Positions 33,423-53,447 are shown, numbered from the stretch's first letter. The stretch: DNA of 53,484 nucleotides from Candidatus Eiseniibacteriota bacterium (GCA_020052115.1 JAGVPR010000320.1:1-53484); one strand, 5' to 3'. The notes: generated from the letters alone by a model not told the origin. Numbers and translations are program-made.

Positions 33423-33434
33423 TGGATGGCTCCG

Positions 33435-34817: not shown

Positions 34818-34818
34818 C

Positions 34819-35145: not shown

Positions 35146-35163
35146 GAGTAGATCCTCCGATTC

Positions 35164-36390: not shown

Positions 36391-36569
36391 CGGACCATTG
36401 CTCCTCTTGATGGAGAACGCCGCAGTCGGCTAGGGACGACCCGCCTCAGATCTCATCCGGGCGCGATTCGGACGATACTGTCGCGCGCCGCAGGGATTTC
36501 CACGGGAAGTGCTCAGATCCGTCGGCGCGGTACGAGCACTCCCGGATGGCGGCAAGCCGGTGGAGCTGT

Positions 36570-36866: not shown

Positions 36867-37047
36867 TACAGTGAATGATACCGACTTCTGAGCGGCGATG
36901 CAACTTCATTCGCGGCGACCGGCCTCGTTCCTGTTGCCGCCTCGACGAGATGGCCGGTGGCATCCACGGCGACGGGCAGCGGCCAGGCCCGCCACGGCGG
37001 CAACGAACGCGACGCGGCCGCTGCTTCCAGCCGAGCGGCGGCTCGTC

Positions 37048-37449: not shown

Positions 37450-37474
37450 GAGTGACTCCTTTCGACTACGGCTC

Positions 37475-40400
37475 TTAGAATTCCGCCCGCTCCCGCTCGA
37501 ACCACTTGTAGAGGGTCGGCAACACCACCAAGGTCAACAGCGTCGAGGTAAAGAGGCCGCCCACCACGACCGTAGCAAGCGGTCGTTGCACCTCAGAACC
37601 GATGCCGTGCGAAAGCAGGAGCGGGATGAGGCCCAAGCTCGCCGCGGTGGCGGTCATGAGAACCGGCCGCAGCCGTCGCTCGCATCCCGTGCGGATGGCA
37701 TCATCAAGAGCGAGACCTTCGCGGCGTAGCTGATTGATGTACGACACGAGGACCACGCCGTTCAGAACCGCCACGCCAAACAGCGCAATGAATCCAACAG
37801 AGGAGGGAACGCTCAAATACTGTCCGGAGAGGTAAAGCGCCCAGATTCCGCCGATCATGGCGAATGGGACGTTGAGCAGGATCAGCAGCGCGTTCCGAAC
37901 CGATCCGAAGGACAGATAGAGAAGGACGAAGATCAGAAGAATGGCAAGCGGGATCACCACGGCCAAGGTCTTCTGCGCCCGCTGTTGATTCTCGAACTGC
38001 CCCCCCCACACCACATAGTACCCCTCAGGCAACCGGACCTTCCGGTCCATCGCCTGCATCCCCTCCTTTACGAAGCCCCCGAGATCCCGGTCCCGGACGT
38101 TGCACTGGATCACGACCCGGCGTTGAGCAGCTTCCCGGCTCACGATGGGAGGACCTTCCTGCACCTCGACGCTCGCAACCCTGGAGAGGGGCACGCGGGC
38201 GCCGGAGGGGGTCGACACGAGCAAGTTGCGGATAGCGTCAATGTCCTTTCGATTCGCCTCTGCCAACCGAAGGTACACGGCGAATCGCTTCTGGCCGTCA
38301 AGGATTTCGGTCACCTCTTGGCCGCCGATCGCGTTGGAGACGAGGTTCATTACGTCATCAACGTTTACCCCGAAGCGGGCGATCTCGTCCCGATCCACGG
38401 CGACGACGATCTGCGCCTCGCCGCTCACGGCTTCAAGCGCAACGTCTCTTGCGCCCGGAATCGAGCGGATCACGCTTTCAATCTCCCGGCCTTTCCTCTC
38501 CAGCACGCCCAGATCCTCGCCGAAGAGTTTGACCGCAATCTGGGCCTTCACGCCGGCAAGGAGTTCGTCCACGCGGGTCGCAATGGGCTGGCTGAAGTTG
38601 AGCAGGATGCCGGGGTGCTGAGAGAGATCCGTCTCAAGTCTCGCCACGAGTTCGCCCCTTGACCGGACCGTCTTCCACTCGCTGATCGGCTTCAGTCCGA
38701 CGAAGATCTCATTATTCGAGATCCCCTCGGGATCGCCTCCAAGCTCCGCTCTCCCAATCTGTGAGAAGGTGTAGGTGACCTCCGGGTAGCGCATGATGAG
38801 CTTCTCCATGCGCGTCGAAATCCGCTTTGCCTCCTCCAGCGACACACTCGGATTCATCGTGACGCGGATCGTCAGCGTGCCCTCCTCGAGTTCGGGGACG
38901 AACTCGCTCCCCAGGCGCGGCAGCACCGCCAGTGCGCCGACCAGGAGCGCGACCCCGATTCCCAGGACCATGAAGCGCCGTCGGAGAGCCACCCCCAGCA
39001 CCGGAGAATAGACCCGGTGAAGGAAGCGCATGAGAAAGCTCTCCTTCTCGGACAGCCTCCCCTGAAGGATGTAGGTCGCCAGCACCGGCACGACGGTCAG
39101 GGCGACAAGAATCGACCCGAGCATGGCGAAGCTGATCGTGAAGGCCAGAGGCTTGAAGAGCTTCCCTTCAACGCCCTGCAGCGTGAACAGTGGAAGAAAA
39201 ACGACCACGATGATCAACACCGCGAAGAACACGGGAGAAGCGACCTCTCGCGCCGCGTGGAGGATCGATCCCCCCCGCCCCTCTCCCGTCGCCGCAGCCT
39301 CCGCGCGGTGACGGAAGATGTTCTCCACCATCACGACGGAGCCGTCCACCATCATCCCGATCCCGATCGCGAGCCCGCCGAGCGACATGAGGTTGGCGGA
39401 AACGCCGAACCGATTCATCATCACGACCGCGATGAGGATCGATAGCGGTATCGAGAGAACCACCAGAAGCGCGGACCGCACGTTCCAAAGAAAGAGAAAG
39501 AGGATGACGACAATCAGCACGACCGAGAGCAGTAGCGCATCCGTGACCGTCCGAACGGCATGGGCGACCAAGTCCGCCTGGTCGTAGACGGACACGATCC
39601 GCACATCCTGCGGGAGCGTCTTCTGAATCGAAGCGATCTTCTCCTCGACGCGCTCGATCACATCCTTCGTATTGGCTCCCTTGAGCATCAGGACGATTCC
39701 GGCCACCACTTCGCCGCGGCCGTTCATCGTCACGGCCCCCTGCCGGATCTCGCCGCCGTACCCGACCTCGGCGATGTCCCGCACGTAGACCGGCGTGCCG
39801 TCGATCGACTTGACGACGACGTTCCCGATGTCAACGAGACCCGGCTCCCCCCCTCGAATCAGACCCGTCCCCCGGATCACGAACTGCTCGGATCCCTGGT
39901 CCAGATACCAGCCGCCGGCATTCCGGTTGTTCCTGCCGAGCGTCTCCGCGATCTCGTTCAACGTCAGGTCATACTTCAGGCACTTGGTCGGATCGACACG
40001 CACTTGGTACTGGCGAACCTCGCCCCCGAAACTCAGGACGTCCGTGACGCCAGGCACCGTTCGCAGCTGGAACTTCACTGTCCAATCATTCAGTGTCCGA
40101 AGGTCCATGGCGGAGCGCGCATCGCTTTCCAGCACATACTTGTAGATCTGCCCCAATCCGGTCGTAATCGGGCCGAGTTCGGGATCCCCCAGTCCGTCCG
40201 GAATCTCTTCCCTTGCGACCTGAAGCCGCTCAAGAACGAGCTGGCGGGCGAAGTAGACATCGACGTCGTCACGGAACACGATTGTGACGACGGACAGGCC
40301 CGTCTTCGACATCGAGCGGACGTCTGTAATCCCGGGCAGACCGCTCATCGCCGCCTCGATCGGAAAGGTCACGAACTGCTCCACCTCGACTGCAGCAAGG

Positions 40401-40564
40401 CCAGGGGATTCCGTGTTGACCTGTACTTGCACATTCGTGACATCCGGGAACGCATCCACGGGGAGGTGGAGCACGGCATAGACGCCGTAGGCCACCAGGA
40501 GTACTGCTAGGACCAGAACCAGGAAGCGCTGCTTGAGCGCCGATTCAATGGCGCGCTGGAGCAT
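37475..40564 (-). CDS. Heavy-metal-efflux RND pump, second paralog (TM4 motif AIG-DGS-VEN)
   Basis: 1029 aa, by-eye roughly 40-50% identical to the first pump over the N-terminus. TM4 reads LAIGIGMMVDGSVVMVEN; the first Asp of the DFG motif is absent. Confidence 0.88.
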   Translation of the reverse strand: MLQRAIESALKQRFLVLVLAVLLVAYGVYAVLHLPVDAFPDVTNVQVQVNTESPGLAAVEVEQFVTFPIEAAMSGLPGITDVRSMSKTGLSVVTIVFRDDVDVYFARQLVLERLQVAREEIPDGLGDPELGPITTGLGQIYKYVLESDARSAMDLRTLNDWTVKFQLRTVPGVTDVLSFGGEVRQYQVRVDPTKCLKYDLTLNEIAETLGRNNRNAGGWYLDQGSEQFVIRGTGLIRGGEPGLVDIGNVVVKSIDGTPVYVRDIAEVGYGGEIRQGAVTMNGRGEVVAGIVLMLKGANTKDVIERVEEKIASIQKTLPQDVRIVSVYDQADLVAHAVRTVTDALLLSVVLIVVILFLFLWNVRSALLVVLSIPLSILIAVVMMNRFGVSANLMSLGGLAIGIGMMVDGSVVMVENIFRHRAEAAATGEGRGGSILHAAREVASPVFFAVLIIVVVFLPLFTLQGVEGKLFKPLAFTISFAMLGSILVALTVVPVLATYILQGRLSEKESFLMRFLHRVYSPVLGVALRRRFMVLGIGVALLVGALAVLPRLGSEFVPELEEGTLTIRVTMNPSVSLEEAKRISTRMEKLIMRYPEVTYTFSQIGRAELGGDPEGISNNEIFVGLKPISEWKTVRSRGELVARLETDLSQHPGILLNFSQPIATRVDELLAGVKAQIAVKLFGEDLGVLERKGREIESVIRSIPGARDVALEAVSGEAQIVVAVDRDEIARFGVNVDDVMNLVSNAIGGQEVTEILDGQKRFAVYLRLAEANRKDIDAIRNLLVSTPSGARVPLSRVASVEVQEGPPIVSREAAQRRVVIQCNVRDRDLGGFVKEGMQAMDRKVRLPEGYYVVWGGQFENQQRAQKTLAVVIPLAILLIFVLLYLSFGSVRNALLILLNVPFAMIGGIWALYLSGQYLSVPSSVGFIALFGVAVLNGVVLVSYINQLRREGLALDDAIRTGCERRLRPVLMTATAASLGLIPLLLSHGIGSEVQRPLATVVVGGLFTSTLLTLVVLPTLYKWFERERAEF

Positions 40565-40594
40565 GAAGGACCTCCCCTTGAGGAATCAGTTGCC

Positions 40595-41731
40595 CTATTC
40601 CCCGAACCCGCTCTTGAGCATCTCCGACTTGAGGGTGAACGCCCCATCGGTGACGACGGAGTCTCCCTCTTGCAGTCCGCGGGTGATCTCGACATCGGCT
40701 CCAGACGTGACACCCGGATCGACATCCTGACGGAAGAATCGGCCGTCCCTGGCGACGAACACGAAGCGCGTCATTCCCTCTTGTTGCAATGCCCCGGCAG
40801 GGATAGCAAGCGCTTGCCGCGCTGGGCCGCGATCGATGTCGCCGTCGACGAACATCCCGGGCTTCAATCGGCCGTCCTGATTGGCGACCTCGACGCGGAC
40901 CTTCACTGTCCGCGTTGCTTCGTCCATCACGTTGTTCACGAGAGCGACCTTGCCGGTGAACACGTCATCCGAATAAGCGCCTACCTTGATCAAGACGCCG
41001 GCCCCGACCTTCACCGAAGCGAGGTCCTTCTCGAACACATCCAGTAGGGCCCAGACGGTGCGGAGGTCCGAGATAAGGCACACTTCGGTTCCCGCCTCGA
41101 CGCGATGGCCCGGGACCATGGTGTTTTCCAGAATGGTCCCGTCAAAGGGCGAATGGAGATGGAGGGTCGGGCTGACCTCGCCTGCTTGCAGCAGGGCATC
41201 GAGCTCTTCCTCGCTCTCCCCGAAGAGGAGGAGCCGTTTTCTGGCAGAAGCGTAGATGGCGCGCGTCGTTTCGATCTCCGCTGCATCACCTTTCGCCTCA
41301 GCCTTCTCGAGACGACTCCGGGCACCGAACAATTCCCCTTCGGCCGTCTGGTATTCGGGGCTGTAGATCGTTAGAACGATGTCCCCGCGTCGAACATGGT
41401 CCCCTTGGATCCGCCGGACTTCCTCCACCCAGCCCGGAAGGCGGCTTACGATTCGGGTCACACGGCGACCGTTGACCTGGATCTCTCCTGTCGCGTGCGT
41501 GCGGTCCCATACTTCCCCATAGCGGACCGGCTCGGTCCTCACCTCTGCCAGTGCGCGCGATGCGGCGGAAAGTGCGATCCCCGCGACGGCGGCGTCCCCT
41601 GACGGCACCGCGCTGGACGTGTCCTCGGCCACGCTTCCATCCGTGGACCTTCTGTCCCCGCACCCGGGGAGAAGGGCGGCGAAGCTTGCCGCCAGGAGGA
41701 GTGAGAGTGCGCTTCGGGTCCTGTGGTGCAC
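40595..41731 (-). CDS. RND periplasmic adaptor (MFP) lipoprotein
   Basis: LLPGC lipobox. MFP-typical lipoyl/hairpin/beta-barrel layout. No Cys/His N-terminal repeats. Confidence 0.85.
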   Translation of the reverse strand: MHHRTRSALSLLLAASFAALLPGCGDRRSTDGSVAEDTSSAVPSGDAAVAGIALSAASRALAEVRTEPVRYGEVWDRTHATGEIQVNGRRVTRIVSRLPGWVEEVRRIQGDHVRRGDIVLTIYSPEYQTAEGELFGARSRLEKAEAKGDAAEIETTRAIYASARKRLLLFGESEEELDALLQAGEVSPTLHLHSPFDGTILENTMVPGHRVEAGTEVCLISDLRTVWALLDVFEKDLASVKVGAGVLIKVGAYSDDVFTGKVALVNNVMDEATRTVKVRVEVANQDGRLKPGMFVDGDIDRGPARQALAIPAGALQQEGMTRFVFVARDGRFFRQDVDPGVTSGADVEITRGLQEGDSVVTDGAFTLKSEMLKSGFGE

Positions 41732-41743
41732 GGTTCCTCCAAT

Positions 41744-43018
41744 CTATGGCTCGATGTCGCCTGCAGCGTCCAGCCGAGCCCGTGCGGAAAGATACTGATA
41801 GAGTGAGCGGCTGTACTCGGTCCGGGAGTCAATGTAAGTCCGGTAGATGTCTATCAGGTTCAGAGCGTCAACCTGATCCGTGCGGTAGGCATCGATTCCC
41901 GCGCGCAGCTCGCTCTCGATATCGTCCAGGATCGAGGATTCGAACAGATTCACCTGTGCGCGTGTGGTGATGACAGTTTCAAAGGCCTGTTCAGCAGCCG
42001 TGCGCACCGCTCGTTGCGCCGCGGTAAGATTCACTTCTTCTCGACCGACGTTTGCACCCGCCTCCCGGACCATCCCTGTTGGCGCCGTCCACCACCAGAG
42101 CGGCAGCGCCAAGCCGAGTCCCGTCCCCCACCTTGCGGTCGTCTCGCCTCCATCTCGGAGCTTCGTCCCCGAGAGCTGGATCTCTATGTCGGGCAGCCGT
42201 TCCTTCCCCGCCAGCTTTCGCGCGGCTCGCGCCGCCTCCAGCCTCACCCTCGCCGCCTCAAGGAGAGCACTCTCTTCCACCACTCGGGAGATTGCCGCCT
42301 CTCGGTCGAGCGTTTCCTGCGGCGCGACAAGGGGTGTCACGAGTTCGATCCGTCCAGATCCTGGCCTCCCCATGAGCAGGTTCAGGTCCGCTCTCGCGCG
42401 CTCCGCCTCGCGTCGAGCCTCGAGGAGATCGTTGCGCAGGCGACTCAGCTCGACTTTCGCTCGGACAACGTCGAGGTAGCCCCCACGGCCGACCTCAAAA
42501 CGACTCCGAGTAGTCTGAAGGAACTCGGTCAGGAGGGCTTCCGACGTCTCCAAGCTCTGAACTCTCTCCTCTTGAAACCGTGCGAAGTAGTAGGTCTCTT
42601 TCACGCCAGCCCCCAGCCGTCTCTGGATCCGGCGCTCGTCCGCTTGAAGCGATCGAACCTCGAGACCGGCTACTTCCCCCCGGAGTCCGCGCTTGCCGGG
42701 AAACGGGATCCCCTGCGTCACTCCGAGTGTGGTCGTTGCCGCCCGATCGAGGCGTGCACCTGCGATCTCATCGACGCCCACGGTGAGTTGGGGCGGTTCG
42801 AGGCTCGTGGCGACGATTACCCTCCCGCGAGCGGCCTCGATTTCCCGAGCAATCGTCTGGATCTCGGGATTGTGGGACAGAGCGGCCTCGATCGCCTGAT
42901 CCAGAGTGAGAGAAGCTAACTCCTCGGTGGTGGCGGGCGAGCCCTGCGCCCGGGCCCTGGATGGCGCGAGGGAAATCACTGTCAGAGCGAGAAACAGGAT
43001 GCCTCCGCACAGCCGCAT
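41744..43018 (-). CDS. TolC-family outer-membrane efflux factor
   Basis: Signal peptide MRLCGGILFLALTVISLAPSRARA. OEP-like two-repeat composition. Operon position. Confidence 0.8.
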   Translation of the reverse strand: MRLCGGILFLALTVISLAPSRARAQGSPATTEELASLTLDQAIEAALSHNPEIQTIAREIEAARGRVIVATSLEPPQLTVGVDEIAGARLDRAATTTLGVTQGIPFPGKRGLRGEVAGLEVRSLQADERRIQRRLGAGVKETYYFARFQEERVQSLETSEALLTEFLQTTRSRFEVGRGGYLDVVRAKVELSRLRNDLLEARREAERARADLNLLMGRPGSGRIELVTPLVAPQETLDREAAISRVVEESALLEAARVRLEAARAARKLAGKERLPDIEIQLSGTKLRDGGETTARWGTGLGLALPLWWWTAPTGMVREAGANVGREEVNLTAAQRAVRTAAEQAFETVITTRAQVNLFESSILDDIESELRAGIDAYRTDQVDALNLIDIYRTYIDSRTEYSRSLYQYLSARARLDAAGDIEP

Positions 43019-43121
43019 TAGTACCTCCGGATAATCGCTGTAGTCGGCACTAAGGGACGAATAGCCCGAGCAGACGGATGTCGCTCAGAGCGATTCGATG
43101 GTCAACGCGGGAAAAAGCGAA

Positions 43122-43568
43122 TCAGCAGCGAAGGACGAGAGGCGAAACGGAGAACGAACGGATTCCCGAAGAGACCGGGGCGTTCGCCGTAGCAGAATCG
43201 TGAGGGACCATCGCATCCGACCCAAGGAGCACGGGGAGGATGCAATCGGGATTGGGCAGCACCTGATGGGCAGCACGAGCTAATGTAGGATGGCGGACGC
43301 CGTCCATCGGAACGTCTCTGCAGCTTGCGCAACTTTCTGGGTTCTCACCCGACCCTGAGACACCGCGGGTGAGCGAGCCCATCTGGGGAGCGAGGCTGGG
43401 ACAGCATCGAGCAGGCGACGTCTCCACATGCGTGGCGCCGTCAGCGTGCATACAGAGCGAACCTAGATTCCACCCGCCCCAAACGACGAGGTAGGCCGCT
43501 AGGCCGATCCGGGATATCGACCTGGAGAATCGAAGGTACTTGATACGCAGAGCCTTCTGGGCAGTCAT
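43122..43568 (-). CDS. Hypothetical membrane-anchored Cys/His-containing protein upstream of the second efflux operon
   Basis: N-terminal helix IGLAAYLVVWGGW, then LCMHADGATHVETSPARCCPS...ESCASCRDVP. Frame-specific GC3 (~70%) is above the local GC. No clear SD, so this is tentative. Confidence 0.4.
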   Translation of the reverse strand: MTAQKALRIKYLRFSRSISRIGLAAYLVVWGGWNLGSLCMHADGATHVETSPARCCPSLAPQMGSLTRGVSGSGENPESCASCRDVPMDGVRHPTLARAAHQVLPNPDCILPVLLGSDAMVPHDSATANAPVSSGIRSFSVSPLVLRC

Positions 43569-43665
43569 TACTTGCTAGCCTAAACCGGAACCGGACCGAA
43601 TGTCCATCAGAATACTCCTTCCTGTCTTCGGGGGCGCTTGATGGCACCCTGCATGTCCTCGTGCG

Positions 43666-44016
43666 TCAAAAGACCAGCACGCGGTCGGCCTCCAAGGTCC
43701 AAGCGATCAGCTCCTCCATCGAGCCGCGTTTCGCTCCCTCGAGAAGAGCTTCAGGCTTGATCCCCCGGGCATCCATGCAGGTCCCGCAAAGGCCGATCTT
43801 CACCGCCTTGCGCGCAAGCCCCTTCAACATCCGCTCGAGGTTGTAATAGCCGTTCGGCGTCGTCTGTCCGGACACCCCGCTGCTTACCGCATCGCCCATG
43901 AGAAAGACCGACACCTCCGCTCCCTCGGTTCCGGCAAGCGAGTTCGCGAGGCGAATGCCGTTATAGGTCCGCTCGCCTCCGTAGGGCGCATCGTTGAGGA
44001 TGAGGAGGTACTTCAT
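43666..44016 (-). CDS. DsrE/DsrF-family sulfur-relay-like protein
   Basis: 116 aa. MKYLLILNDAPYGGERTYNGIRLA...VSVFLMGDAV...IGLCGTCMDARG is the DsrE/YchN-like fold signature. Confidence 0.75.
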   Translation of the reverse strand: MKYLLILNDAPYGGERTYNGIRLANSLAGTEGAEVSVFLMGDAVSSGVSGQTTPNGYYNLERMLKGLARKAVKIGLCGTCMDARGIKPEALLEGAKRGSMEELIAWTLEADRVLVF

Positions 44017-44037
44017 GCCTGTTCCTTTCTCCGCGAT

Positions 44038-45261
44038 TCACCACCCGAATTCCAGTGGTGGCCAGTCGTTCCGTATGCGGGCCAGGTAGTAGATCTCGAA
44101 GCCAGCTTTCAGGTAATGCGCCCACTTCCCGCGCTTGTGTTGGACCCGATTGCGAGGAGGCAGGAATGGATCGGCGCGCAGCCAGAACGCCGTGTCGCCG
44201 GCGTCGGCGATGCACGAGGCGGCCAGCGTCAGCCCGTCCACTCTTGAGCCTCCGGCGATGTCCGCTGCGATGTTGTGCGCCGCAGCGAGCGCCATCAGGT
44301 CGGTCATCCCTCCGGTCTTTGGCACGGCGACCGGTACGGGAGTCGGAGCGGGAGGAGCGATCGCGATCGCCACGCCCACCGCGTAGATGTTCTCGAACTT
44401 CGTGCTTCGAAGCTCGGGGGTCACCGTGACGAATCCCCGGGGATTCGTGAGTCCCGCTGCTCCCCGGACGAACGGGCTTCCGAGGAAGGCGGGGATCACG
44501 AGGCCGAAGTCGAAGGCGTGTTCGGTCCCGCTCGCCAGGACAAGCCGGTCGGGACGAGCCTCGACGATCCCGGCATTCACGACTCCGGAAATGTGGCGCT
44601 CCGCGAACTCGTCTTCGAACATGCGCCCCGACTTGCCGATGCCGCCGACCCCGAAGTGCCCGACGAAGGGTTCGGGGGTCACGAACTCGATATGGAAGCG
44701 GTGGCGCCGCCGGATCCGCCGGAGGGCGGTGTCAATCTGCATCGCGATCTCGTAGCCGGGACCGATGCAGCTCGCACCCGGAGCGGCACCGATCACGATG
44801 CGTCCGCGATCGAGCCGCAGGGCGCGTGCAAGGGCGTCACGCGCCGCGGCCGCTTCTGCAGTCGTGAAGGTAGATTGCGTGTGCGCATCCGGGCCGATCC
44901 CCGGGACCGCCGCGTAGTCCAGCTCGGCACCGGAGGCGATCACGAGGTAGTCGTAAGGGAAACCCTCGCCGCCCGTGCGCACTTCCGCGCGGTCCGGGTC
45001 GAGTCCCAACACATCCCCGTGAACGAAGCGGATGCCACGTTTCGCCAACGGACCCGCAAGAGACACTTGGAGGCGGGCCGGATCCCGCCAGCCGAGGACC
45101 ACCCACGGCAGCGACGGCATGAACGTGAACTCCGCCTCGCGAGAGATGACCGTGATATTGACTCGGTCGCGCAGCTTGCGGCGGAGAGCGTAGGCCGTGT
45201 TGATCCCGCCGAAGGACCCGCCGACGATGACGATGCGCTTCTTCGAGGGCGTCGCAGCCAT
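44038..45261 (-). CDS. sqr: Sulfide:quinone oxidoreductase-like flavoprotein
   Basis: FAD motif RIVIVGGSFGG. Conserved Cys contexts GASCIGPGYE and LAASCIADAG. C-terminal amphipathic tail. Confidence 0.75.
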   Translation of the reverse strand: MAATPSKKRIVIVGGSFGGINTAYALRRKLRDRVNITVISREAEFTFMPSLPWVVLGWRDPARLQVSLAGPLAKRGIRFVHGDVLGLDPDRAEVRTGGEGFPYDYLVIASGAELDYAAVPGIGPDAHTQSTFTTAEAAAARDALARALRLDRGRIVIGAAPGASCIGPGYEIAMQIDTALRRIRRRHRFHIEFVTPEPFVGHFGVGGIGKSGRMFEDEFAERHISGVVNAGIVEARPDRLVLASGTEHAFDFGLVIPAFLGSPFVRGAAGLTNPRGFVTVTPELRSTKFENIYAVGVAIAIAPPAPTPVPVAVPKTGGMTDLMALAAAHNIAADIAGGSRVDGLTLAASCIADAGDTAFWLRADPFLPPRNRVQHKRGKWAHYLKAGFEIYYLARIRNDWPPLEFGW

Positions 45262-45264
45262 CTC

Positions 45265-45837
45265 CTACTTCCTTCCCGTTGCGGTTGGGGACCGGAGCTT
45301 CGCTAACACGCCCGTGATCTCGTCCTCCGGCGCCCCTGGGTAATGTGTCGCATAGACGATCACGCCGTCCTTGTTGATGATGTAGAGATTCGTCAAGGGA
45401 CACGACCCCGGCACGTAGCGCCCGCTGTATCGGGTCGTCACCTCGCCCTCCGGGTCGTACAGAAACCGCAGAGTGAGGTGGTTCGCACGGACGGCATCCT
45501 CGACGGTCTTCCGGTCCTTCTCGAGCTGGCTCAGCGCGACGACTTCGATCCCCTTCCCGCTGTACTCGCTCTTGATCTTCTCCATTCCTCCGAACTTGGA
45601 CTGGCAGCCCTCGCAAAGATTCGTGAACCACAGGAGGGCCCCTTCGCGGCCTTTCAGATCGGAGAGGGTGAACCGCTTGCCTCGAAAGTCCTTCAGAGTA
45701 AAGTCGGGCGCCTTGTCATTCACGGACGGGGTCTTCTTCGTCCGGGCTCCGGCCTGTTCGGCATGGCTGGGAAGCGGGAATGCAAACACTGCTCCGACGA
45801 GCATGATGCTGCTGAGGGATCGAACCCAGGTCATCAT
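45265..45837 (-). CDS. Periplasmic TlpA/redoxin-family thiol-disulfide oxidoreductase
   Basis: Signal peptide MMTWVRSLSSIMLVGAVFAFPLPSHA. APDFTLKDFRGKRFTLSDLKG...LLWFTNLCEGCQ (CxxC). GGGAG RBS. Confidence 0.8.
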   Translation of the reverse strand: MMTWVRSLSSIMLVGAVFAFPLPSHAEQAGARTKKTPSVNDKAPDFTLKDFRGKRFTLSDLKGREGALLWFTNLCEGCQSKFGGMEKIKSEYSGKGIEVVALSQLEKDRKTVEDAVRANHLTLRFLYDPEGEVTTRYSGRYVPGSCPLTNLYIINKDGVIVYATHYPGAPEDEITGVLAKLRSPTATGRK

Positions 45838-45872
45838 GTTGCTCCCTCTTCGTGGTTCGAAGTTCACCTAGA

Positions 45873-47177
45873 TTAGAACTCGTAGCGGATGGCGGCATAG
45901 GCGTTGTCGTTTCGGTCGAACTGTCCGAAGAAAGTGGTTTCGCCGGACCCTCCGAAGATGTTGCCCCCCACGGCGGCCCAGACGCCGTCGGCCAGGCTGT
46001 GCCATACCTCCGGGATCAGATAGAAGTCTTCATCCGTCGGGCTCCAGTATCCGAAGAACGAGAGCTTCCAGGTTTGGTAGTCGGAGAGCCATGTGGCCCT
46101 GCTCGTGACCAGACTCCGGTGACGGTCCTGCTCTGGAGCGCCAGATGGAAGGGTCGATCGGTACTGGTCGTACTGCCGTATGCGCTCGCCGTAGTACTGG
46201 AGGCCAAGCATGACGCTCGGTCCCATCTGCCTCTTGTAGCCGGCGAGGTAGAGAACCTGCGAGTTCGGCACGAACGGGTCGTTCCCTTCCGGGTCATTCC
46301 TCGAATCGTAGTAGCCGCCCTCGAGGTTGATGACTCCACCCAGTCCCGCTCGTTGCACGGAAGCGCCGTAAACACCGCGTCGCGGAAAGCGCACGACAAC
46401 CCGCATGGAACCGCCCGTCGTGTCCGGCTCCGGCGCCGGGCTTCGGTAGAATCCGCGATCCGCGTAGAGGGCGCATTCCCAGCCGATCACCGCGCGAGAG
46501 ACCTTGATCGCGAGCTCAGCGTTGTCGAGGTTCGGTCTTGGCTCCCGCGTGGTCCGATTCGTCGCGCCGGAGAATGGGTCCTGAACGAAGAACCTGTCTC
46601 CGTCAGGCAATCGGTCGGCTTCGAAGGTGGGGCTTGCGATGGCCTCGAACCCGAAGTCCGCCAGATACCAATCGAGCTTGAGGGCGTCGGTCCCAACCTT
46701 CAGGTACTCCAGCGGCCGCCCGGTAAAGAGCGCAGCCCAGTCCTTCGGGAAGACGTCGTTCACGAAGAGGAGATCGCCGGTACCCCAGGTGACGATCTGA
46801 CGGCCCACGCGGGCCTCGAGAGGGCCGGCGGTGAAATCTATGTAAGCCTCCCGGACCTCCATGTCCGACCGATCCAGGATGCTGTCGTGGATGAAGTCCG
46901 TCTTGGCCGAGAAGCCGCTGCGACCGCCAGCCACGGCGCCGGTCAGGGTGAGTTGCAGACGCTCCTCGCCCAGGATGAAGTCCGAACCGCCGGGCGGCCG
47001 TAGACCGGTCACCCTGGAGGCGTAGTCCCCTTGGACGAAGCCGTGCAGATCCACATCGCCGGCATACGCGCCCGGGGCCAGAGAGAGAAGCGTCAGACCG
47101 ACGAGCAGCGTCCGCGCGCTACTTGATCCACTGCGCGGGCGGCTTCTGCAGGTAGCGCTCGGAAAAAAGCCCCTCAT
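45873..47177 (-). CDS. Outer-membrane beta-barrel protein (alginate-export/DUF1302-like)
   Basis: Signal-like ARTLLVGLTLLSLAPGAYA. REAYIDFTAGPLEARVGRQIVTWGTG. C-terminal YAAIRYEF. The start is uncertain: the only ATG (47177) overlaps the upstream gene by 59 nt. Confidence 0.7.
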   Translation of the reverse strand: MRGFFPSATCRSRPRSGSSSARTLLVGLTLLSLAPGAYAGDVDLHGFVQGDYASRVTGLRPPGGSDFILGEERLQLTLTGAVAGGRSGFSAKTDFIHDSILDRSDMEVREAYIDFTAGPLEARVGRQIVTWGTGDLLFVNDVFPKDWAALFTGRPLEYLKVGTDALKLDWYLADFGFEAIASPTFEADRLPDGDRFFVQDPFSGATNRTTREPRPNLDNAELAIKVSRAVIGWECALYADRGFYRSPAPEPDTTGGSMRVVVRFPRRGVYGASVQRAGLGGVINLEGGYYDSRNDPEGNDPFVPNSQVLYLAGYKRQMGPSVMLGLQYYGERIRQYDQYRSTLPSGAPEQDRHRSLVTSRATWLSDYQTWKLSFFGYWSPTDEDFYLIPEVWHSLADGVWAAVGGNIFGGSGETTFFGQFDRNDNAYAAIRYEF

Positions 47178-47931
47178 CCAGTCCGCTATCGTAGCCGACG
47201 TTTTCAAACACGACCTCCGTGTGGTGCTCCCTCTTGACGTCCCGCATCGTCCGACGGACGACCGTGGGATGGCCCCCCACATCCTTCACTTCGTCTGCCG
47301 TGAAGACTCTTGCGAGCTGGTTCTGCACGTCGTAGAACTCTTCCCGGACCGGCAAGAAGGTCTTCTTATCGATCCAGGAAACCTTGCGCGTAAAGGCCGA
47401 GCTGCTTTTCGGAACGGCCTCGACGACGTAGCAGTCCTTCCCTTCGCGCGCTTCCTCGTTCAACAGCTTGTAGCTGTCCGCGCCCAAGTCCCTGCCGGAG
47501 ATGTCTTCGTACGAGAAGTCCGAACCGACGAAGCTCGACTGGGCGTCCTTCGCGGCAACGCGCGTGACGAGCTTGATGGCGGGGATGAAGAGCCAGCGAC
47601 TGTCGTCCTTGTCTTGGTACTTCCACACCAGGAAGGCGGTGCCGCGCACGTCGGCCGGCTCATGGAAGTAGATGTAGTACTTCTGACTCGAGCCCTCGCC
47701 TGTATCGAGCCTGAGCATCGTCAGCTTTCGCCGGCGCTCCTGCCCTTCCTTGTCGACGAGCCGCATGCTCACGTCGGCGCGGAAGTCCCGGGCAGCATAC
47801 AGAAAGGCCTGCTGCTCCCGGCTCACGATGTCCTCCCCCGTGACTTGCGCCGCGGCCGGCGCGACCGTCCCCGCACCCAACGCCAGCAGGGTCAAAGTTC
47901 CCAGTGAAAGAACACCTCGCACGCTCTGCAT
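47119..47931 (-). CDS. LolA-like outer-membrane lipoprotein-sorting-family periplasmic protein
   Basis: Start at MQSVRGVLSLGTLTLLALGAGTVAPAAA with GGGAGG 8 nt upstream. YYIYFHEPADVRGTAFLVW...WLFIPAIKLVTRVAA...FVGSDFSYEDI is typical of the LolA-like family that accompanies MMPL/RND exporters. Confidence 0.75.
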   Translation of the reverse strand: MQSVRGVLSLGTLTLLALGAGTVAPAAAQVTGEDIVSREQQAFLYAARDFRADVSMRLVDKEGQERRRKLTMLRLDTGEGSSQKYYIYFHEPADVRGTAFLVWKYQDKDDSRWLFIPAIKLVTRVAAKDAQSSFVGSDFSYEDISGRDLGADSYKLLNEEAREGKDCYVVEAVPKSSSAFTRKVSWIDKKTFLPVREEFYDVQNQLARVFTADEVKDVGGHPTVVRRTMRDVKREHHTEVVFENVGYDSGLDEGLFSERYLQKPPAQWIK

Positions 47932-47932
47932 C

Positions 47933-50263
47933 CTACGCACCTCCCTTGAAAAGCCAACCCCGCAGAAGGACGATCAGGGCCGGCAGATAGATGATCGTCA
48001 TGACAGCCGACAGGATCATCATGCTCACGATGAACGCGCCGACCGTGACGTACGGGGTCAACGGAGCGAACAACATGACCGAGAAGGCCGAAGCAAACAG
48101 GACGGCATTCCGGAACACACCCTTGCCGGGCCTCTCCGCGGTCCACAGCAGCGCATCGGTCACCGTGGATTCGTCGGGCACGGTGCCATCGGGGCGGATC
48201 TCCGACAGCCGTCTCCGAAAGCGACTGATGAAGTGGATGGCGAAATCCACGGCCATCCCGAGCGAGAGAGTGCTCAGGACCGAGATCGGCATGTCGAAGT
48301 CCTTGCCGGAGAGGCCGATCAGGCCGTAGATCACGAGGATCGTGAAGACGAGCGGGGCGTACCCTACGATCGCCCACTTGAGGGAGCGGAAGTTCACGGC
48401 CAAGATCACAAAGACGACGACCAAGGCGATCACGAATCCCCGGATCATGTCCCAGAGCACCTCATCGTTCCAGACGAGGTTGAAGTAGGCGGTTCCGGCG
48501 GGCTTGAACGTGAGCCGGGCGCCCGTCCGCGCCTTGAACTCATCAACTTCATGCTTCACCGTTCGCATCGCGTCGGCGTCCCACGTCTTGAGCTGGACGA
48601 AGATGTTGGCCCGGCGGAACGGATAGTCCACGACGTTGTTCAGGTCGGAGGGTTTGGCCGACATCCCGAAGAGGAACAGATACTGCCCCACGGTCTCTTC
48701 GGACTCGGGAATGACGTCGTAGGCGGGATTCTCATCATGAAGGACGTAGTTGATTCTCTTCACATAGTCCACGACCGAGGTGGTCTTCCCGACGACAGGA
48801 AGGGCTTCCAGGCGCCGTTGCAGCCCCTCGATGGTTCGCAGCGCTTCCGGGGTCTTGATCTGATCATCTTGATCCGCGATCGCCACCACGTACCCGAGAG
48901 ACGTGCCGCCGAGCGCTGCGTTCAGGACCCGATCCGAGGTTCGCACCTCGCTCTTCCCTTTGAACCACTCCACGGTGTTGTTGTTCACGTGGATCCTGGT
49001 CATCCCGACGACTGCCAGGGCCAGAAGGGCGAGGCCCACGAAGACACTTCGCCGCGGCCGCCGGGCGCCCAGGAGCGCCGCGCGCGTCAGAAGCCGCGCG
49101 GTCCGGCTCGACCTGACGTCCTCCCGCTGGGAAGTCCGCTGGATCGTCTCGTCCTTGACGAACGTGAACATCGCGGGGATGAAGCTGAAGCTCAGAATCC
49201 TCAAGGCAAGCGTGCCGAAGGCCACAAGTCCGCCGAACACCCTGACCGGTTCGATGTGCATGAACAGGAGAACGGCAAAGCCGGCCATGGTGGCGAGGGC
49301 CGTGTAGCGAACGGGCCGTCCGACCGCCTTCATCGTCTCCAGGATCGCGGCTCTCTTATCGCCAGTCTCGCGGAACCGGAAGTAGAACTCGTTGAAGATG
49401 TGGATGCTGTCCGTGGCGATCGCCATCAGGAACACGGGAGCCATCGAGCTCATGATGTGGATCGGAAAGCCGAAACCGATCAAGAGCCCCATGCTCCAGA
49501 TGATGGCGACCATGGCGTCCATCATGAGCGCGATGGACAAGAACAGGTCCCTGAACATGAGGTAGCGGGCGAGGAACATGAGAAGCCCGGCGATCGGGGC
49601 GAAGATCGCCATGAGCTTGAACATCTCCGAGCCGAAGGTATCTCGGGCGACCGGATCGCCGGCGACGTAGAAGCGCTCTGGACCATTCTCGGTTCGCACG
49701 ATCCCGCGGATACGGTCCGCGACGGCCTTTCCGTTCACCCCGCGCTCCAGCGGCACGTAGATGGCGGTCGTGTTGCCGTCCTCGGAGATGACGCGATTCA
49801 GGAAGAGGGGATTCCCGAAGAGCGCCCTCCGGAGGTCGCTGAGCTCCCGGTCGGTCGCCGGCACCTCCGGCATGAGCGGACCGACCTTGAGCGTGCCGCC
49901 CTCCATGGTCACGTTGTCGATCGTCGTTAAGCTCGAAACATCCCTGGCAGCGACCCCTTCGATCCTGAGGATCTCGCCGGTGATCCGGTGGATCCGCTCG
50001 AGCGTCTCGCGATTCAGCACTCCGCCGTCGTTGGCAACCCCGAGAACGATCATGTCCTCGTAGAGATCGAAGGTCTTCTCCACCTCGCTGTTCCAGACCC
50101 GCACATCCGAGGTCTCGGGGAGCATGTGCTTGGGGTTCGTATCCGTCTTCGCCTTCGGGAACTGGGTCAGCGCCGCCGCACTCAGCAGCACGGTCAGCAG
50201 GACGACCCACCTCGGATGATTCACGGAAAACTCGACCATCGAGAATCTTGGAGCCTTGCTCAT
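47933..50263 (-). CDS. MMPL/HpnN-like RND-superfamily exporter (2 x 6 TM)
   Basis: Start at MSKAPRFSMVEFSVNHPRWVVLL. Two hydrophobic bundles are separated by large periplasmic loops. No MFP gene is adjacent. Confidence 0.85.
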   Translation of the reverse strand: MSKAPRFSMVEFSVNHPRWVVLLTVLLSAAALTQFPKAKTDTNPKHMLPETSDVRVWNSEVEKTFDLYEDMIVLGVANDGGVLNRETLERIHRITGEILRIEGVAARDVSSLTTIDNVTMEGGTLKVGPLMPEVPATDRELSDLRRALFGNPLFLNRVISEDGNTTAIYVPLERGVNGKAVADRIRGIVRTENGPERFYVAGDPVARDTFGSEMFKLMAIFAPIAGLLMFLARYLMFRDLFLSIALMMDAMVAIIWSMGLLIGFGFPIHIMSSMAPVFLMAIATDSIHIFNEFYFRFRETGDKRAAILETMKAVGRPVRYTALATMAGFAVLLFMHIEPVRVFGGLVAFGTLALRILSFSFIPAMFTFVKDETIQRTSQREDVRSSRTARLLTRAALLGARRPRRSVFVGLALLALAVVGMTRIHVNNNTVEWFKGKSEVRTSDRVLNAALGGTSLGYVVAIADQDDQIKTPEALRTIEGLQRRLEALPVVGKTTSVVDYVKRINYVLHDENPAYDVIPESEETVGQYLFLFGMSAKPSDLNNVVDYPFRRANIFVQLKTWDADAMRTVKHEVDEFKARTGARLTFKPAGTAYFNLVWNDEVLWDMIRGFVIALVVVFVILAVNFRSLKWAIVGYAPLVFTILVIYGLIGLSGKDFDMPISVLSTLSLGMAVDFAIHFISRFRRRLSEIRPDGTVPDESTVTDALLWTAERPGKGVFRNAVLFASAFSVMLFAPLTPYVTVGAFIVSMMILSAVMTIIYLPALIVLLRGWLFKGGA

Positions 50264-50298
50264 GACCACCTGCCTTTCCCGGGGCTCGGCATCACGGC

Positions 50299-50457
50299 CT
50301 AGTGGTCGACGACCAGGAGGGAGTGCGTCCGGACGAAGTAGTTGGCCCGAAGCCACTCATCGGGCTTGCCCTCGTCCTTCCAGGGACCATCGCCCGCATG
50401 ACCGGTCGTGCAGGAGCGGCTCTTCTCGACGATGCGGACGGCGGGCGGGCATCTCAT
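50299..50457 (-). CDS. Small ORF (52 aa) not in the ORF track: MRCPPAVRIVEKSRSCTTGHAGDGPWKDEGKPDEWLRANYFVRTHSLLVVDH
   Basis: Found by hand translation. Very high GC3. GAGGAGG lies ~12 nt upstream. It fills the gap between the ArsR-rhodanese and RND genes. Confidence 0.4.
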   Translation of the reverse strand: MRCPPAVRIVEKSRSCTTGHAGDGPWKDEGKPDEWLRANYFVRTHSLLVVDH

Positions 50458-50486
50458 GGCTCAGGCAATCCTCCTCATTCCATGCT

Positions 50487-51200
50487 TCACTGGGCTTTAG
50501 AGGCACCTCTTCCCTTCCGGGAGCCCTCTGCGCTACTCACCTCGACGGCGAGGCCTCGCGCCCGCCAGTCCGGCACGCCCTCCTCGAGACGGACGGCCTT
50601 GAAGCCCGCGCGTCGAAGGAGCTCAACAGCCTCCACTGCCAGCACGCAGTACGGTCCACGGCAGTAGGCCACGATCTCGCGCTTGCGCGGCAATTCCCGG
50701 ATTCTCCGCTTGAGTTCTACGAGAGGCACCGAAAGGGCCCCGGGAATGTGCCCCGCCTGGTATTCCTCGGCAGGCCGCACGTCGAGAACGGTCACCTCGC
50801 CTCGGCGAACCCGGGAGATCAGTGCCTCCCGATCCACAGGTTCGAGCGCGCCCCGTTCTTCGAGAAACTGCCGTGTGACCGCATGAATCTCCAAGAGTCG
50901 GGATTCCGCGAGTCGCCGGAGCGATCGGTAGAACGTGCAGACCTCCTCGTCAGCGAGACGATAGAGCACGTGCGTACCGTCCTTCTCTCCCTCGACAAGC
51001 CGTGCGCGACGGAGCGCCTGAAGGTGATGGGAGGTGTTCGCGACTGACTGCCCAACTTCCGCAGCGATCAACTCCACCGTTCGGGGTCCCTGGCAGAGAA
51101 GGTCGAGGATCTCCAGTCGCGGGCCGCTCGAAAGCGACTTGCCGATCCGGGCGAGCTGCTCGTAGACGCCACTCTTCCACGCTCGAGCTGGGGTTTTCAT
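50487..51200 (-). CDS. ArsR/SmtB-family HTH regulator fused to a C-terminal rhodanese domain
   Basis: Start at MKTPARAW. LEILDLLCQGPRTVELIAAEVGQSVANTSHHLQALRRARLV is the ArsR HTH. The rhodanese part is VLDVRPAEEYQAGHIPGALSVP...IVAYCRGPYCVLA, which contains the active-site Cys loop. Confidence 0.85.
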   Translation of the reverse strand: MKTPARAWKSGVYEQLARIGKSLSSGPRLEILDLLCQGPRTVELIAAEVGQSVANTSHHLQALRRARLVEGEKDGTHVLYRLADEEVCTFYRSLRRLAESRLLEIHAVTRQFLEERGALEPVDREALISRVRRGEVTVLDVRPAEEYQAGHIPGALSVPLVELKRRIRELPRKREIVAYCRGPYCVLAVEAVELLRRAGFKAVRLEEGVPDWRARGLAVEVSSAEGSRKGRGASKAQ

Positions 51201-51277
51201 ATATTCAAGTCCTCGTTTGAGGATTTTAGAACTCGCCGCGCGCGGACGCAAGCCCTTTCTATGGCCAGGTGCAAATG

Positions 51278-51489
51278 GAGATCCTCTCCCTCCGGCACCA
51301 GCACGCGGTCTACCACCGAACTTGTCGCCGCCCCCAACTCCGGCGGAGCGACCGCATCAGTCGCCGGCCGTGGACTGCCGCGAACCACGCCACGTCCACG
51401 TCGCCGATCGCGGCTGCGTGGCCGAAATCGAGGAACTCGGCGGGCTCCACCATCATTGCGAACGAGTCGCGGCCTGCCGCGGCAGGTAA
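51278..51489 (+). pseudogene. Collapsed relic of an rve/DDE-integrase-type IS transposase (N- and C-terminal ends only, frame-shifted)
   Basis: One frame reads EILSLRHQHAVYHRTCRRPQLRRSDRI, which resembles the ENLALRQQLAVL-R-x-x-x-RP-x-L-x-x-x-DR N-terminus of a widespread IS transposase family. The +1 frame ends ...VAEIEELGGLHHHCERVAA*, which resembles the ...GGLHH-x-Y-x-R-x-A C-terminus. About 300 codons in between are missing. Recognition is from memory, not from a search. Confidence 0.45.
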
Positions 51490-51622
51490 ACACCCCGTAG
51501 CGCCCGTGTGGCGTCTGCCATTACTGTGCTATCGTGAAATGCAACCACCAACCGCAAGCACGGGCGCAGATGCGGGAGTGGTCGAATGTCGCCAACGCTG
51601 GAAGAACGCGAAGGGCGCTGCC

Positions 51623-53182
51623 ATGAATACGTTTCTTGTTCACGTCGGCGACGACAACTTCTGCCGGCTGCTTCCGGAGGAAGTCGATCGGTCCCGCTCT
51701 AGCAACGGGCGGGTCAAGGTGATGGCGTTTCCGCCGCTGGGGATTCAGACGTTGGCGCCGGTGCTGCGCGAACGGGGACACCAGGTGCGGATGTTTGACA
51801 CATGCCACCCGCAGATGAGGGCGGAGCATGTTGCGCAAGCTGTTGCCGAGGAAAAGCCGGACGTGATTGCGCTGTCGTTTCTCTCGACCACCACCTACCC
51901 GGCAGTCAAGAGCATGGCCCGGCGACTGAAGGCCGAGGTGGCGAAGATACCGATCATCGTTGGCGGAGCCTTCGCCACCTTGAATGCGGACCGCATTCTG
52001 GGGGACTGCCCGGACATTGACTGCGTGGGGGTGGGTGAAGGGGAAGAGCTGCTGTCGGACTACTTGGACCACCTCGATGCTCCGGGCTCCGTGGCGGGTC
52101 TGGTCTGGCGTCGCGGCGGGACCATCGTCGAGAATGCCCCGAGGCCACTCCTCTCGGACCTGGATCAGTTTCCGTATCCCGACCGGACCAGCCTGCCGAT
52201 CGACTACATCGAATCCCTGCCCCTGGATGTTCCGGCGGTGCTCTCGTTGGACAAGTTCTGCACCGTGCAAACATCGCGCGGCTGCCCGTACTCCTGCATC
52301 TACTGCGATATCCCATCCCTGGGCCAGCGCCGGTGGCGCAGCCGTTCGCCGGAACATGTCCTGCGAGAACTGCAGGAACTTAACGATCTGGGCTATCGCT
52401 CGATCCTCCTGACCGATGATCATTTCCTGATCAACCGGAAGCGGATTGACGCGATTTGCCGCGGCATCATTGAACGCAAGCTGGAGTTTCACTGGGGCTG
52501 CGAAGGCCGGGTTGATTCGGTTGGAATCGAGCAACTGCCGATCATGCGCCAGGCCGGGTGCAGTTTCCTGGCATTTGGCGTGGAGGCGGGGACGCAAAAC
52601 GTGCTGAACCGGCTCAACAAGAAGCAGACCCCCGCGCAGGTGCAGCACGCGGTCAGTGAAGCAAAGCGGCAGGGCATCGCCAGGGTCCACGGATTCTTCG
52701 TCGTCGGCTCGCCCGATGAGACGGAAGAGGACATCATGGCGAGCTTCCGCTTCGCCGCGCGTCTGGAGTTGGATACGTTTGGCTTCAATCGGTTGTGCGC
52801 TTATCGCGGGACGCCGTTGTGGCAGGAGTATGTGGCGCGCGGGATCATTGATGACGAGCGGGACTGGCACAAGTGGTTCAAGTGCTCGGACATTGACCCC
52901 ACCACTCTGCCCAGTGCCGTGGTGAATCGCCTGCGGGCGAAAGGCTACGGCTTGCTGTTCCTCTACCGGATTCTCAGGCGTCCGATCCGAACCTGGAAAC
53001 TCCTGCGTGCCTTCGGCCGCCACATGAAGACGTCCGACATCCTTGCATTGCTTTGCAGTCCGTTTCGCCGGCGGACTCTGACCCGGAAGGCCGAGCTCCC
53101 GGCCCGGATGATGGATGCAGGACTTGAGGAGCCGGACCGTCGGACAGCTGCCGCCGCCGGCTCGCCGCCATGCCCGGTCTGA
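51623..53182 (+). CDS. B12-binding-domain radical SAM protein (class B)
   Basis: Start at MNTFLVH. B12 domain DVIALSFLSTTTY...IIVGGAFAT. Cluster motif TSRGCPYSCIYCDI. The upstream part of the 637-aa track ORF is the transposase relic and intergenic DNA. Confidence 0.85.
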   Translation: MNTFLVHVGDDNFCRLLPEEVDRSRSSNGRVKVMAFPPLGIQTLAPVLRERGHQVRMFDTCHPQMRAEHVAQAVAEEKPDVIALSFLSTTTYPAVKSMARRLKAEVAKIPIIVGGAFATLNADRILGDCPDIDCVGVGEGEELLSDYLDHLDAPGSVAGLVWRRGGTIVENAPRPLLSDLDQFPYPDRTSLPIDYIESLPLDVPAVLSLDKFCTVQTSRGCPYSCIYCDIPSLGQRRWRSRSPEHVLRELQELNDLGYRSILLTDDHFLINRKRIDAICRGIIERKLEFHWGCEGRVDSVGIEQLPIMRQAGCSFLAFGVEAGTQNVLNRLNKKQTPAQVQHAVSEAKRQGIARVHGFFVVGSPDETEEDIMASFRFAARLELDTFGFNRLCAYRGTPLWQEYVARGIIDDERDWHKWFKCSDIDPTTLPSAVVNRLRAKGYGLLFLYRILRRPIRTWKLLRAFGRHMKTSDILALLCSPFRRRTLTRKAELPARMMDAGLEEPDRRTAAAAGSPPCPV

Positions 53183-53412: not shown

Positions 53413-53447
53413 ACCGGCAACCCCGAAGACGAACCGGGGTTACCGGC
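53413..53447 (-). terminator. 13-bp hairpin (two G-U pairs) immediately downstream of the tRNA 3' end
   Basis: On the reverse strand: GCCGGUAACCCCG-guucgucuu-CGGGGUUGCCGGU followed by UUCGUCUUC. Confidence 0.4.

Follow-up and report, generated by a model that had tools for sequence, protein, structure and literature searches.

Why should genes for sulfide oxidation lie in one cluster with genes for a transporter that appears to span the cell envelope? The question is raised by positions 43666-51200 of a 53,484-nucleotide stretch of DNA from a Candidatus Eiseniibacteriota bacterium (JAGVPR010000320.1; the whole stretch is referred to here as the window). Eight co-directional open reading frames (ORFs), all on the minus strand, were read from this sequence, and a preliminary description of the locus assigned them, in order, to an ArsR-rhodanese regulator, a 52-residue ORF, an inner-membrane transporter of the resistance-nodulation-division (RND) type, a periplasmic LolA-like protein, an outer-membrane beta-barrel, a periplasmic redoxin, a sulfide:quinone reductase (SQR) and a DsrE-family protein. 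These domain calls are borne out by Pfam and NCBIfam, and the identities of the proteins are established. We know of no described machinery that carries insoluble elemental sulfur, once made at the inner membrane, through the periplasm and across the outer membrane. Here, we propose that the cluster serves the detoxification of sulfide and sulfane sulfur with export of hydrophobic zero-valent sulfur, a reading to which we assign a probability of roughly 0.4. The RND, LolA-like and barrel genes, which would form the export route, are referred to below as the trio.

Organization of the cluster

The gene cluster is confirmed in its coordinates, strand, spacing and domains. The regulator and the 52-residue ORF are separated by 29 nt, and the latter is followed after 35 nt by the RND gene, whose ATG lies at 50263. 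The RND and LolA-like genes overlap by 8 nt, and the LolA-like and barrel genes by 59 nt if the barrel begins at the ATG at 47177; this is the sole start that provides a signal peptide, which is missing from the 393-residue version in the source annotation, and the relative L008 uses the same overlapping start (L numbers denote related loci). The remaining junctions consist of gaps of 5 nt (barrel/redoxin), 3 nt (redoxin/SQR) and 21 nt (SQR/DsrE). The earlier claim of tightly packed genes thus holds: no gap exceeds 35 nt, and two gene pairs overlap. That internal promoters or terminators might divide the cluster had been raised as a possibility, and a scan of the cluster yielded promoter-like and terminator-like sites in numbers not above shuffled expectation. 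No Rfam match was found anywhere in the window. The cluster is presumably co-transcribed.

Linkage of sulfur and transporter genes across phyla

Related loci were gathered from three independent seeds, the SQR, the barrel and the regulator, the best 80 loci per seed being sampled. Of the 83 unique loci from the SQR seed, 65 have an adjacent DsrE gene, 35 an ArsR-rhodanese gene and 11 an adjacent trio; where at least 5 kb was available on both flanks, the trio is found in 8 of 33. The co-occurrence that the preliminary description had suggested looking for is seen in these loci. These SQR-seeded trio loci include Acidobacteriota, Bryobacterales and Nitrospirota, and they display two gene orders: RND-LolA-barrel-SQR-DsrE in Acidobacteriota-type metagenome-assembled genomes (MAGs) and in the closest relatives, L008 and L168, and DsrE...SQR-RND-LolA-barrel in Nitrospirota-type MAGs. 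The recurrence of an identical gene order in independent lineages indicates that the arrangement exceeds chance.

The other two seeds recovered the same association. SQR-type, DsrE, NifS-like or ArsR-rhodanese genes lie within 5 kb of the barrel in 13 of the 15 barrel-seeded metagenome loci that have at least 2.5 kb on both flanks, and the remaining two have a small ArsR gene. Both contexts examined for the regulator seed hold DsrE and a NifS-like cysteine desulfurase, to which L171 adds an SQR/FCSD-type gene. Moreover, a second SQR/FCSD-type flavoprotein, 26-31% identical, adjoins the trio in L094, L100 and L143, suggesting that the partnership arose more than once. The cluster is distributed over Acidobacteriota, Nitrospirota, Desulfobacterota-type, Zixibacteria and Methylomirabilota MAGs. 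The functional link postulated earlier between the sulfide-oxidation genes and the trio is thus upheld by an adjacency that recurs across phyla from three seeds, together with a common putative operator described below. The conserved linkage itself is established.

The trio is an accessory to this association rather than an obligatory part of it. L001, the closest SQR relative examined (86% identity), has a globin and a methyltransferase gene in place of the pump. The core, which is widespread in uncultured bacteria, consists of ArsR-rhodanese, DsrE and SQR, and the pump is an accessory module.

These data also bear on whether two independent modules might be adjacent without being coupled, with nothing in common but the type of regulator or residence in one genomic island. 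The trio is missing at most SQR loci, and the RND of the window is about 70% identical to Nitrospirota versions and the SQR about 70% identical to Acidobacteriota versions, which points to modular assembly. However, each of the three seeds recovered the linkage, which extends over several phyla, two gene orders and two types of SQR; the junctions overlap or span at most 35 nt; and one shared putative operator lies at the 5' end. We regard adjacency without coupling as highly unlikely.

The most common partners of the trio are DsrE or DsrEFH-like carriers (29 of 92 loci), and clustering of ORFs showed an S-adenosylmethionine (SAM) methyltransferase and DsrEFH-like triples to be recurrent neighbors. 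An arsenite methyltransferase identity for the former was rejected on ArsM scores far below the cut-off, the best match being to the DVU_1556-type family. A NifS/IscS-like cysteine desulfurase is also frequent (L002, L003, L100, L104, L112, L137, L143, L163, L170, L171 and others); it occurs in 22 SQR-seeded loci and scores 441 bits to the NifS model, below its cut-off. No persulfide dioxygenase, Sox, rDsr or sHdr gene is present among the recurrent neighbors that were annotated in the top ORF clusters or among the annotated ORFs of the window, which leaves sulfane sulfur made by SQR without an encoded onward route in the neighborhood.

The prominence of DsrE-type carriers could also be explained by transport in the opposite direction, with barrel, LolA-like protein and RND bringing extracellular elemental sulfur inward to DsrE and further sulfur-transfer proteins, to be used or disproportionated. 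Nitrospirota and Desulfobacterota-type MAGs account for many of the trio loci, and we know of no established route by which insoluble sulfur crosses the outer membrane. Yet the characterized RND pumps known to us work outward on the proton gradient, SQR produces rather than consumes zero-valent sulfur, and no conserved sulfur reductase or oxidation module occurs among the annotated recurrent neighbors. Import is, in our judgment, very unlikely.

The SQR and DsrE homologues

The 407-residue flavoprotein encoded at 44038-45261 carries a Pyr_redox_2 domain (PF07992) and matches the SQR of Aquifex aeolicus (3HYV) across residues 8-399 (E=3e-86) and that of Acidithiobacillus ferrooxidans (3T2Y; E=1e-71). 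Its N-terminal flavin adenine dinucleotide (FAD)-binding motif is VGGSFGG, in agreement with GxGxxG, and Cys165 and Cys350, which align with Aquifex Cys156 and Cys347, are invariant in 22 homologues. A threonine occupies the position of the FAD-linking Cys124 of Aquifex; the third, FAD-proximal cysteine is not essential in every SQR type. The type III selenoprotein SQR model NF049943 scores 98 bits against a cut-off of 525. Judged by its sequence, the flavoprotein is a genuine, type I-like SQR homologue, and it probably has SQR activity. It resembles type I SQRs (Aquifex aeolicus 3HYV, Acidithiobacillus ferrooxidans 3T2Z) in full-length homology, FAD fold and possession of both redox cysteines, and differs from them in the missing Cys124 equivalent, a C-terminus shorter by about 23 residues and its pairing with DsrE in most genomes.

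DsrE itself (43666-44016, 116 residues) matches PF02635 over positions 1-116 of 116 with 89 bits. It has no signal peptide, and its sequence contains a CGTC motif that may hold the active-site cysteine. DsrF and DsrH partners are not encoded in the window, DsrEFH-like triples being confined to Nitrospirota-type loci. The tight pairing of SQR and DsrE suggests that both act on the cytoplasmic side of the membrane.

A transporter trio related to hydrophobe exporters

The RND gene (47933-50263) encodes a 776-residue inner-membrane transporter of the MMPL/HAE3 type, close in length to its homologues (770-780 residues). PF03176 matches in two stretches (E=8e-23), accompanied by Patched and sterol-sensing domain matches, and the protein has the 12-transmembrane-segment RND architecture with an MMPL domain in each half. 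The best NCBIfam match is TIGR00921 (HAE3; 159 bits, E=1e-46), under the 352-bit cut-off, and the HpnN and MmpL3 models match weakly. Charged membrane residues that are predicted to couple transport to protons are present in both repeats: in the Asp-x-x-His motifs ATDSIH and AVDFAIH, the aspartate is retained in 41 and 42 of 42 homologues, respectively, and the histidine in all 42 in both.

The LolA-like protein (47119-47940, 273 residues) scores 204.6 bits to PF17131, the family of TP_0789-like proteins, and 41.8 bits to DUF1329; it carries a Sec signal peptide and lacks a lipobox cysteine. Its nearest solved structure is LolA3 of Porphyromonas gingivalis (9TP6, E=1.9e-41), followed by 4Z48 and 3BK5. 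LolA3 has a hydrophobic groove, is not paired with LolB and has no known function. The third component (45873-47177), a 434-residue precursor ending in RYEF, is a distant relative of DUF1302 (PF06980, 31.4 bits against a cut-off of 23.2), and the C-terminal phenylalanine is invariant in its family. An AlphaFold2 model, built with database homologues, has a mean predicted local distance difference test score of 76.9 and about 20 strands; Foldseek matched it only to outer-membrane porins, the best of 16-18 strands, and to AlgE (E=1e-11 to 1e-9), so that model and search together confirm the beta-barrel fold. Neither the barrel nor the RND has a sequence match to a solved structure. A Pfam scan detected no membrane-fusion protein in the cluster, as expected from the earlier view of an exporter that dispenses with one.

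The closest tested system is AmeABCD of Castellaniella defragrans, which exports hydrophobic monoterpenes and consists of the DUF1302 protein AmeA, the DUF1329/LolA-superfamily protein AmeB, the COG4447 protein AmeC and the HAE3 RND AmeD. Like AmeABCD and a DUF1302/DUF1329/BNR/RND group defined by cofitness, the cluster encodes an HAE3-type RND without a membrane-fusion protein or TolC; as in AmeABCD, its partners are a periplasmic protein of the LolA superfamily and an outer-membrane protein related to DUF1302. In contrast to AmeABCD, a COG4447/BNR (Ycf48-like) partner is absent both from the cluster and from the annotated recurrent neighbors of the 92 trio loci, the LolA-like protein is of the short PF17131 type (273 rather than 451 residues), the barrel is smaller (about 430 rather than 605 residues) and barely exceeds the DUF1302 threshold, and the setting is sulfur trafficking under an ArsR regulator rather than hydrocarbon catabolism. 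Judged by its domains, the trio is a reduced relative of the AmeABCD-type HAE3 exporters of hydrophobes.

Alternatively, the trio might export a lipid or other constituent of the envelope and be induced together with SQR and DsrE so that the envelope is hardened against sulfide or polysulfide stress, sulfur not being the cargo; the export of hopanoids by HpnN is a parallel. Characterized HAE3/MMPL pumps carry lipids or hydrocarbons, the RND has its weak HpnN and MmpL3 matches, a DUF1302/DUF1329/RND set has been proposed elsewhere, from cofitness, to export a cell-wall component, and an OlsE-like/FA_hydroxylase membrane protein is encoded beside the regulator in L093, L143 and L170. However, that hydroxylase-like gene is present in only about 5 of the 92 loci, and no conserved lipid-biosynthesis genes lie beside the trio, next to which genes for sulfur trafficking and for ArsR regulators recur instead. 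Furthermore, two unrelated SQR types have been recruited beside the trio, which better fits a chemical link than one through general stress. Envelope remodeling is therefore an unlikely explanation, in our view.

A predicted ArsR-rhodanese repressor and its candidate operator

The first gene of the cluster (50487-51200) encodes a 237-residue protein with an ArsR/SmtB helix-turn-helix (PF01022, PF12840) and a C-terminal rhodanese domain (PF00581); its start at 51200 agrees with a 237-residue protein on record from the same contig (P0246). The ArsR winged helix-turn-helix scores 69 bits to NF033788 (cut-off 55), and the score to the BigR model is far under its cut-off. Sequence inspection revealed neither the canonical alpha3 CxC nor the alpha5 DxH...H metal site. 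The cysteines of the rhodanese CRGPYC loop are conserved in 45 and 43 of 45 homologues, whereas Cys36 and Cys88 of the ArsR domain, spaced 52 residues apart, are present in only 23 and 20 of 45. This distribution, which does not match the sensing cysteine pair that SqrR, BigR and YgaV carry in the ArsR domain, suggests that sensing resides in the rhodanese domain. The preliminary description had invoked a persulfide-type sensor architecture; its ArsR-family fold stands, and the cysteine placement of SqrR and BigR does not, the invariant cysteines being those of the rhodanese. From its sequence, the protein is predicted to be an autoregulated repressor and sensor that probably responds through the chemistry of these rhodanese cysteines.

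A palindrome derived from the upstream regions of 48 regulator genes (consensus ATTCAA-N8-TTGAAT) occurs at 51203-51222 as ATTCAAGTCCTCGTTTGAGG, 3 nt before the regulator ATG. It is the sole match with at most two mismatches in the 53-kb window, so that at this threshold no site lies inside the cluster or ahead of the Czc-type genes downstream of it; control of those operons by the same operator was accordingly rejected. The region 51201-51270, put forward earlier as a place to look for regulator binding, thus contains the only good putative operator of the window. Across 1.96 Mb of related loci, 31 sites with at most one mismatch were found, against about 4 expected by our rough estimate for random sequence; 22 of the 31 lie within about 100 nt of a regulator start, and 4 others precede an SQR or DsrE that is the first gene. 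The motif and its position are established. It is common to loci with SQR only (L027-L037) and to pump loci (L129, L137, L143, L163), and this shared candidate operator would mark both the SQR and the pump modules.

The arrangement recalls SqrR, BigR and YgaV, autoregulated ArsR-family repressors that likewise stand beside SQR and rhodanese functions (YgaV is co-transcribed with the rhodanese YgaP) and that have a palindrome with ATTC...GAAT half-sites over the promoter. It differs in that the rhodanese is fused to the repressor, in the location of the invariant cysteines, and in the operator spacing, ATTC-N12-GAAT here as opposed to ATTC-N8-GAAT.

An ArsR-type regulator would also be expected if the cluster detoxified thiophilic metals or metalloids. 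Sulfide or persulfide that the cassette makes or consumes would then combine with elements such as Cu, Cd, As, Se or Te. Metal-sulfur or methylated species would be expelled by the pump as hydrophobic or colloidal products, and the regulators would sense the metal(loid). ArsR/SmtB proteins are indeed found throughout, two Czc/Cus-like RND systems lie directly downstream with similar ones near SQR-DsrE in L001, L002 and L168, in L093 and L169 the pump is preceded by genes for Met-rich periplasmic proteins, and the recurrent methyltransferases have weak similarity to ArsM. In addition, an H2S-induced operon of Azospira suillum, with SQR inside a classical RND pump, has been read as serving metal-sulfide export. 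But the regulator has neither canonical metal site and keeps its invariant cysteines in the rhodanese, the pump is an HAE3/MMPL transporter with a hydrophobic LolA-like carrier rather than an HME transporter with fusion protein and TolC, the Czc promoters of the window carry no operator motif, and the methyltransferase fits the DVU_1556-type family better than ArsM. We consider metal(loid) detoxification quite unlikely.

A proposed model for export of zero-valent sulfur

The direction in which the trio works and, most of all, its cargo are inferred from the following considerations. The partners of the trio (SQR, DsrE, NifS-like proteins and rhodanese) make or carry sulfane sulfur, and the trio would move hydrophobes outward; export of S8 or polysulfanes is therefore favored. 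To our knowledge, S8 and long polysulfanes are the sole hydrophobic form of sulfane sulfur.

According to the model, H2S would enter the cell by diffusion and be converted by membrane-bound SQR into zero-valent (sulfane) sulfur, with quinone taking the electrons. DsrE would hold part of this sulfur as a protein persulfide, and the hydrophobic products, S8 and long polysulfanes, would enter the inner membrane, from which the proton-driven RND would extract them. They would then pass to the hydrophobic groove of the LolA-like protein and leave through the outer-membrane barrel of about 20 strands. The regulator would sit on the ATTCAA-N8-TTGAAT palindrome over its own promoter until persulfidation of the invariant rhodanese cysteine in the CRGPYC loop freed it, turning on the whole cluster. 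That the trio is a dedicated envelope-spanning exporter of S8 or polysulfanes, induced through an ArsR repressor to which a rhodanese domain is fused as persulfide sensor, is in our view a tentative and somewhat doubtful proposal.

Several observations weigh against sulfur export. Gene neighborhood is the sole basis for assigning the cargo, and inorganic sulfur is not among the known HAE3 substrates, all of which are lipids or hydrocarbons. Most SQR-DsrE loci, L001 among them, do without the trio, so that the core can function without export. Conversely, the trio loci L089, L101 and L119 have no sulfur gene within the sequenced flank (although in L089 a fragment of a rhodanese gene opens the locus, directly ahead of the RND), and in other trio loci genes for Met-rich periplasmic proteins or a lipid-hydroxylase-like gene take their place. 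An SQR that faced the periplasm could not load a cytoplasmic DsrE, and the NifS-like and methyltransferase partners are unaccounted for by a simple export model.

Accessory and neighboring genes

Two of the eight ORFs do not belong to the conserved cluster. The 52-residue ORF (50299-50457, minus strand) had been counted as a member of an eight-gene unit, and comparison by tblastn and of ORFs identifies it as a relic of a gene for a secreted CxxCH protein of about 210 residues. Its candidacy as a genuine small gene was rejected because intact homologues of 207-214 residues occupy this position in L008 (L008:3731-4375, 214 residues) and L009 (L009:3667-4290, 207 residues); a truncated form of 123 residues is present in L168 (L168:554-925). 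The window copy retains only N-proximal and C-terminal pieces: an internal in-frame deletion has occurred, the signal peptide is gone and CxxCH has become CxxGH. The gene thus appears to be decaying in this lineage, from 214 to 123 to 52 residues. Members of the family, which have a single CxxCH, are found between regulator and pump or immediately ahead of SQR, and neither the 52-residue ORF nor the full-length protein belongs to a Pfam or NCBIfam family.

The redoxin (45265-45867, minus strand; PF00578, PF08534) is a secreted TlpA/ResA-like thiol:disulfide oxidoreductase with a CEGC motif and weak matches to ResA and TlpA. In L008 and L168, the two closest relatives, no redoxin gene separates the barrel from SQR, and redoxin-like genes elsewhere are sporadic (about 6 kb away in L008; L112). 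It was consequently rejected as a core part, contrary to its earlier inclusion in the eight-gene unit.

Downstream of DsrE, 647 nt (43019-43665) without a convincing ORF family, Rfam match or terminator precede the first Czc gene, and two tandem Czc/Cus-like systems, each of OEP, membrane-fusion and AcrB-type RND genes, occupy 30327-43018 on the same strand. In relatives, the slot downstream of DsrE holds unrelated small genes (107 residues in L001, 120 residues in L002, FG-GAP-like in L168). Upstream, a B12-binding radical SAM gene (51269-53182, plus strand) runs divergently from the regulator gene, the two having an intergenic region in common; a second lies at 9101-10828 (minus strand). Near the end of the window and outside the cluster, 53413-53447 (minus strand) forms a strong terminator-like hairpin with a 14-bp stem that includes 9 G-C pairs. 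Small RRM_1 RNA-binding proteins are encoded at 23492-23821 and 24181-24474 (both minus strand) and, near the SQR cassette of L001, at L001:6784-7059, which suggests shared synteny.

Two kinds of gene accompany the trio or the regulator elsewhere. Met-rich secreted proteins, one with CSQCH, are encoded immediately upstream of the RND in trio loci without SQR (L093:6154-6630, L169:359-892), and their composition hints at soft-metal binding. The fatty-acid-hydroxylase/OlsE-like membrane proteins found beside ArsR-rhodanese genes are located at L093:4975-5847, L143:3259-4122 and L170:9089-9895.

Precedents and implications

Within the library of papers searched, no description of this gene combination was found and, on sulfur transport, only an importer of zero-valent sulfur. 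The Azospira suillum operon Dsui_3440-3443 likewise unites SQR and an RND efflux pump in one cluster; it is induced and fitness-relevant under H2S, and its deletion gave no sulfide-oxidation phenotype. Its pump, unlike that described here, is of the AcrB/Czc type with a membrane-fusion protein, and no LolA-like protein, DUF1302 barrel, DsrE or ArsR-rhodanese has been reported there. YedE1E2, a proposed mover of zero-valent sulfur, is a transporter linked to genes for ArsR regulators, SQR, persulfide dioxygenase and rhodanese; unlike the trio, it belongs to an unrelated inner-membrane family, works in the direction of uptake and has no periplasmic or outer-membrane components. We rate the combination as a variant assembled from known kinds of systems, the function proposed for it being novel.

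The cluster represents a widely distributed candidate machine for the export of elemental sulfur. If the model is true, it would provide the first molecular route by which elemental sulfur made by SQR leaves diderm bacteria, and the regulator would exemplify a new type of sensor for sulfane sulfur. The ArsR-rhodanese proteins, at least 8000 of which are in the database, form a large and unstudied family of regulators that gains a predicted operator. Should the cargo prove to be a lipid or a metal-sulfur species, the cluster would still tie sulfide stress to an uncharacterized branch of the HAE3 pumps.

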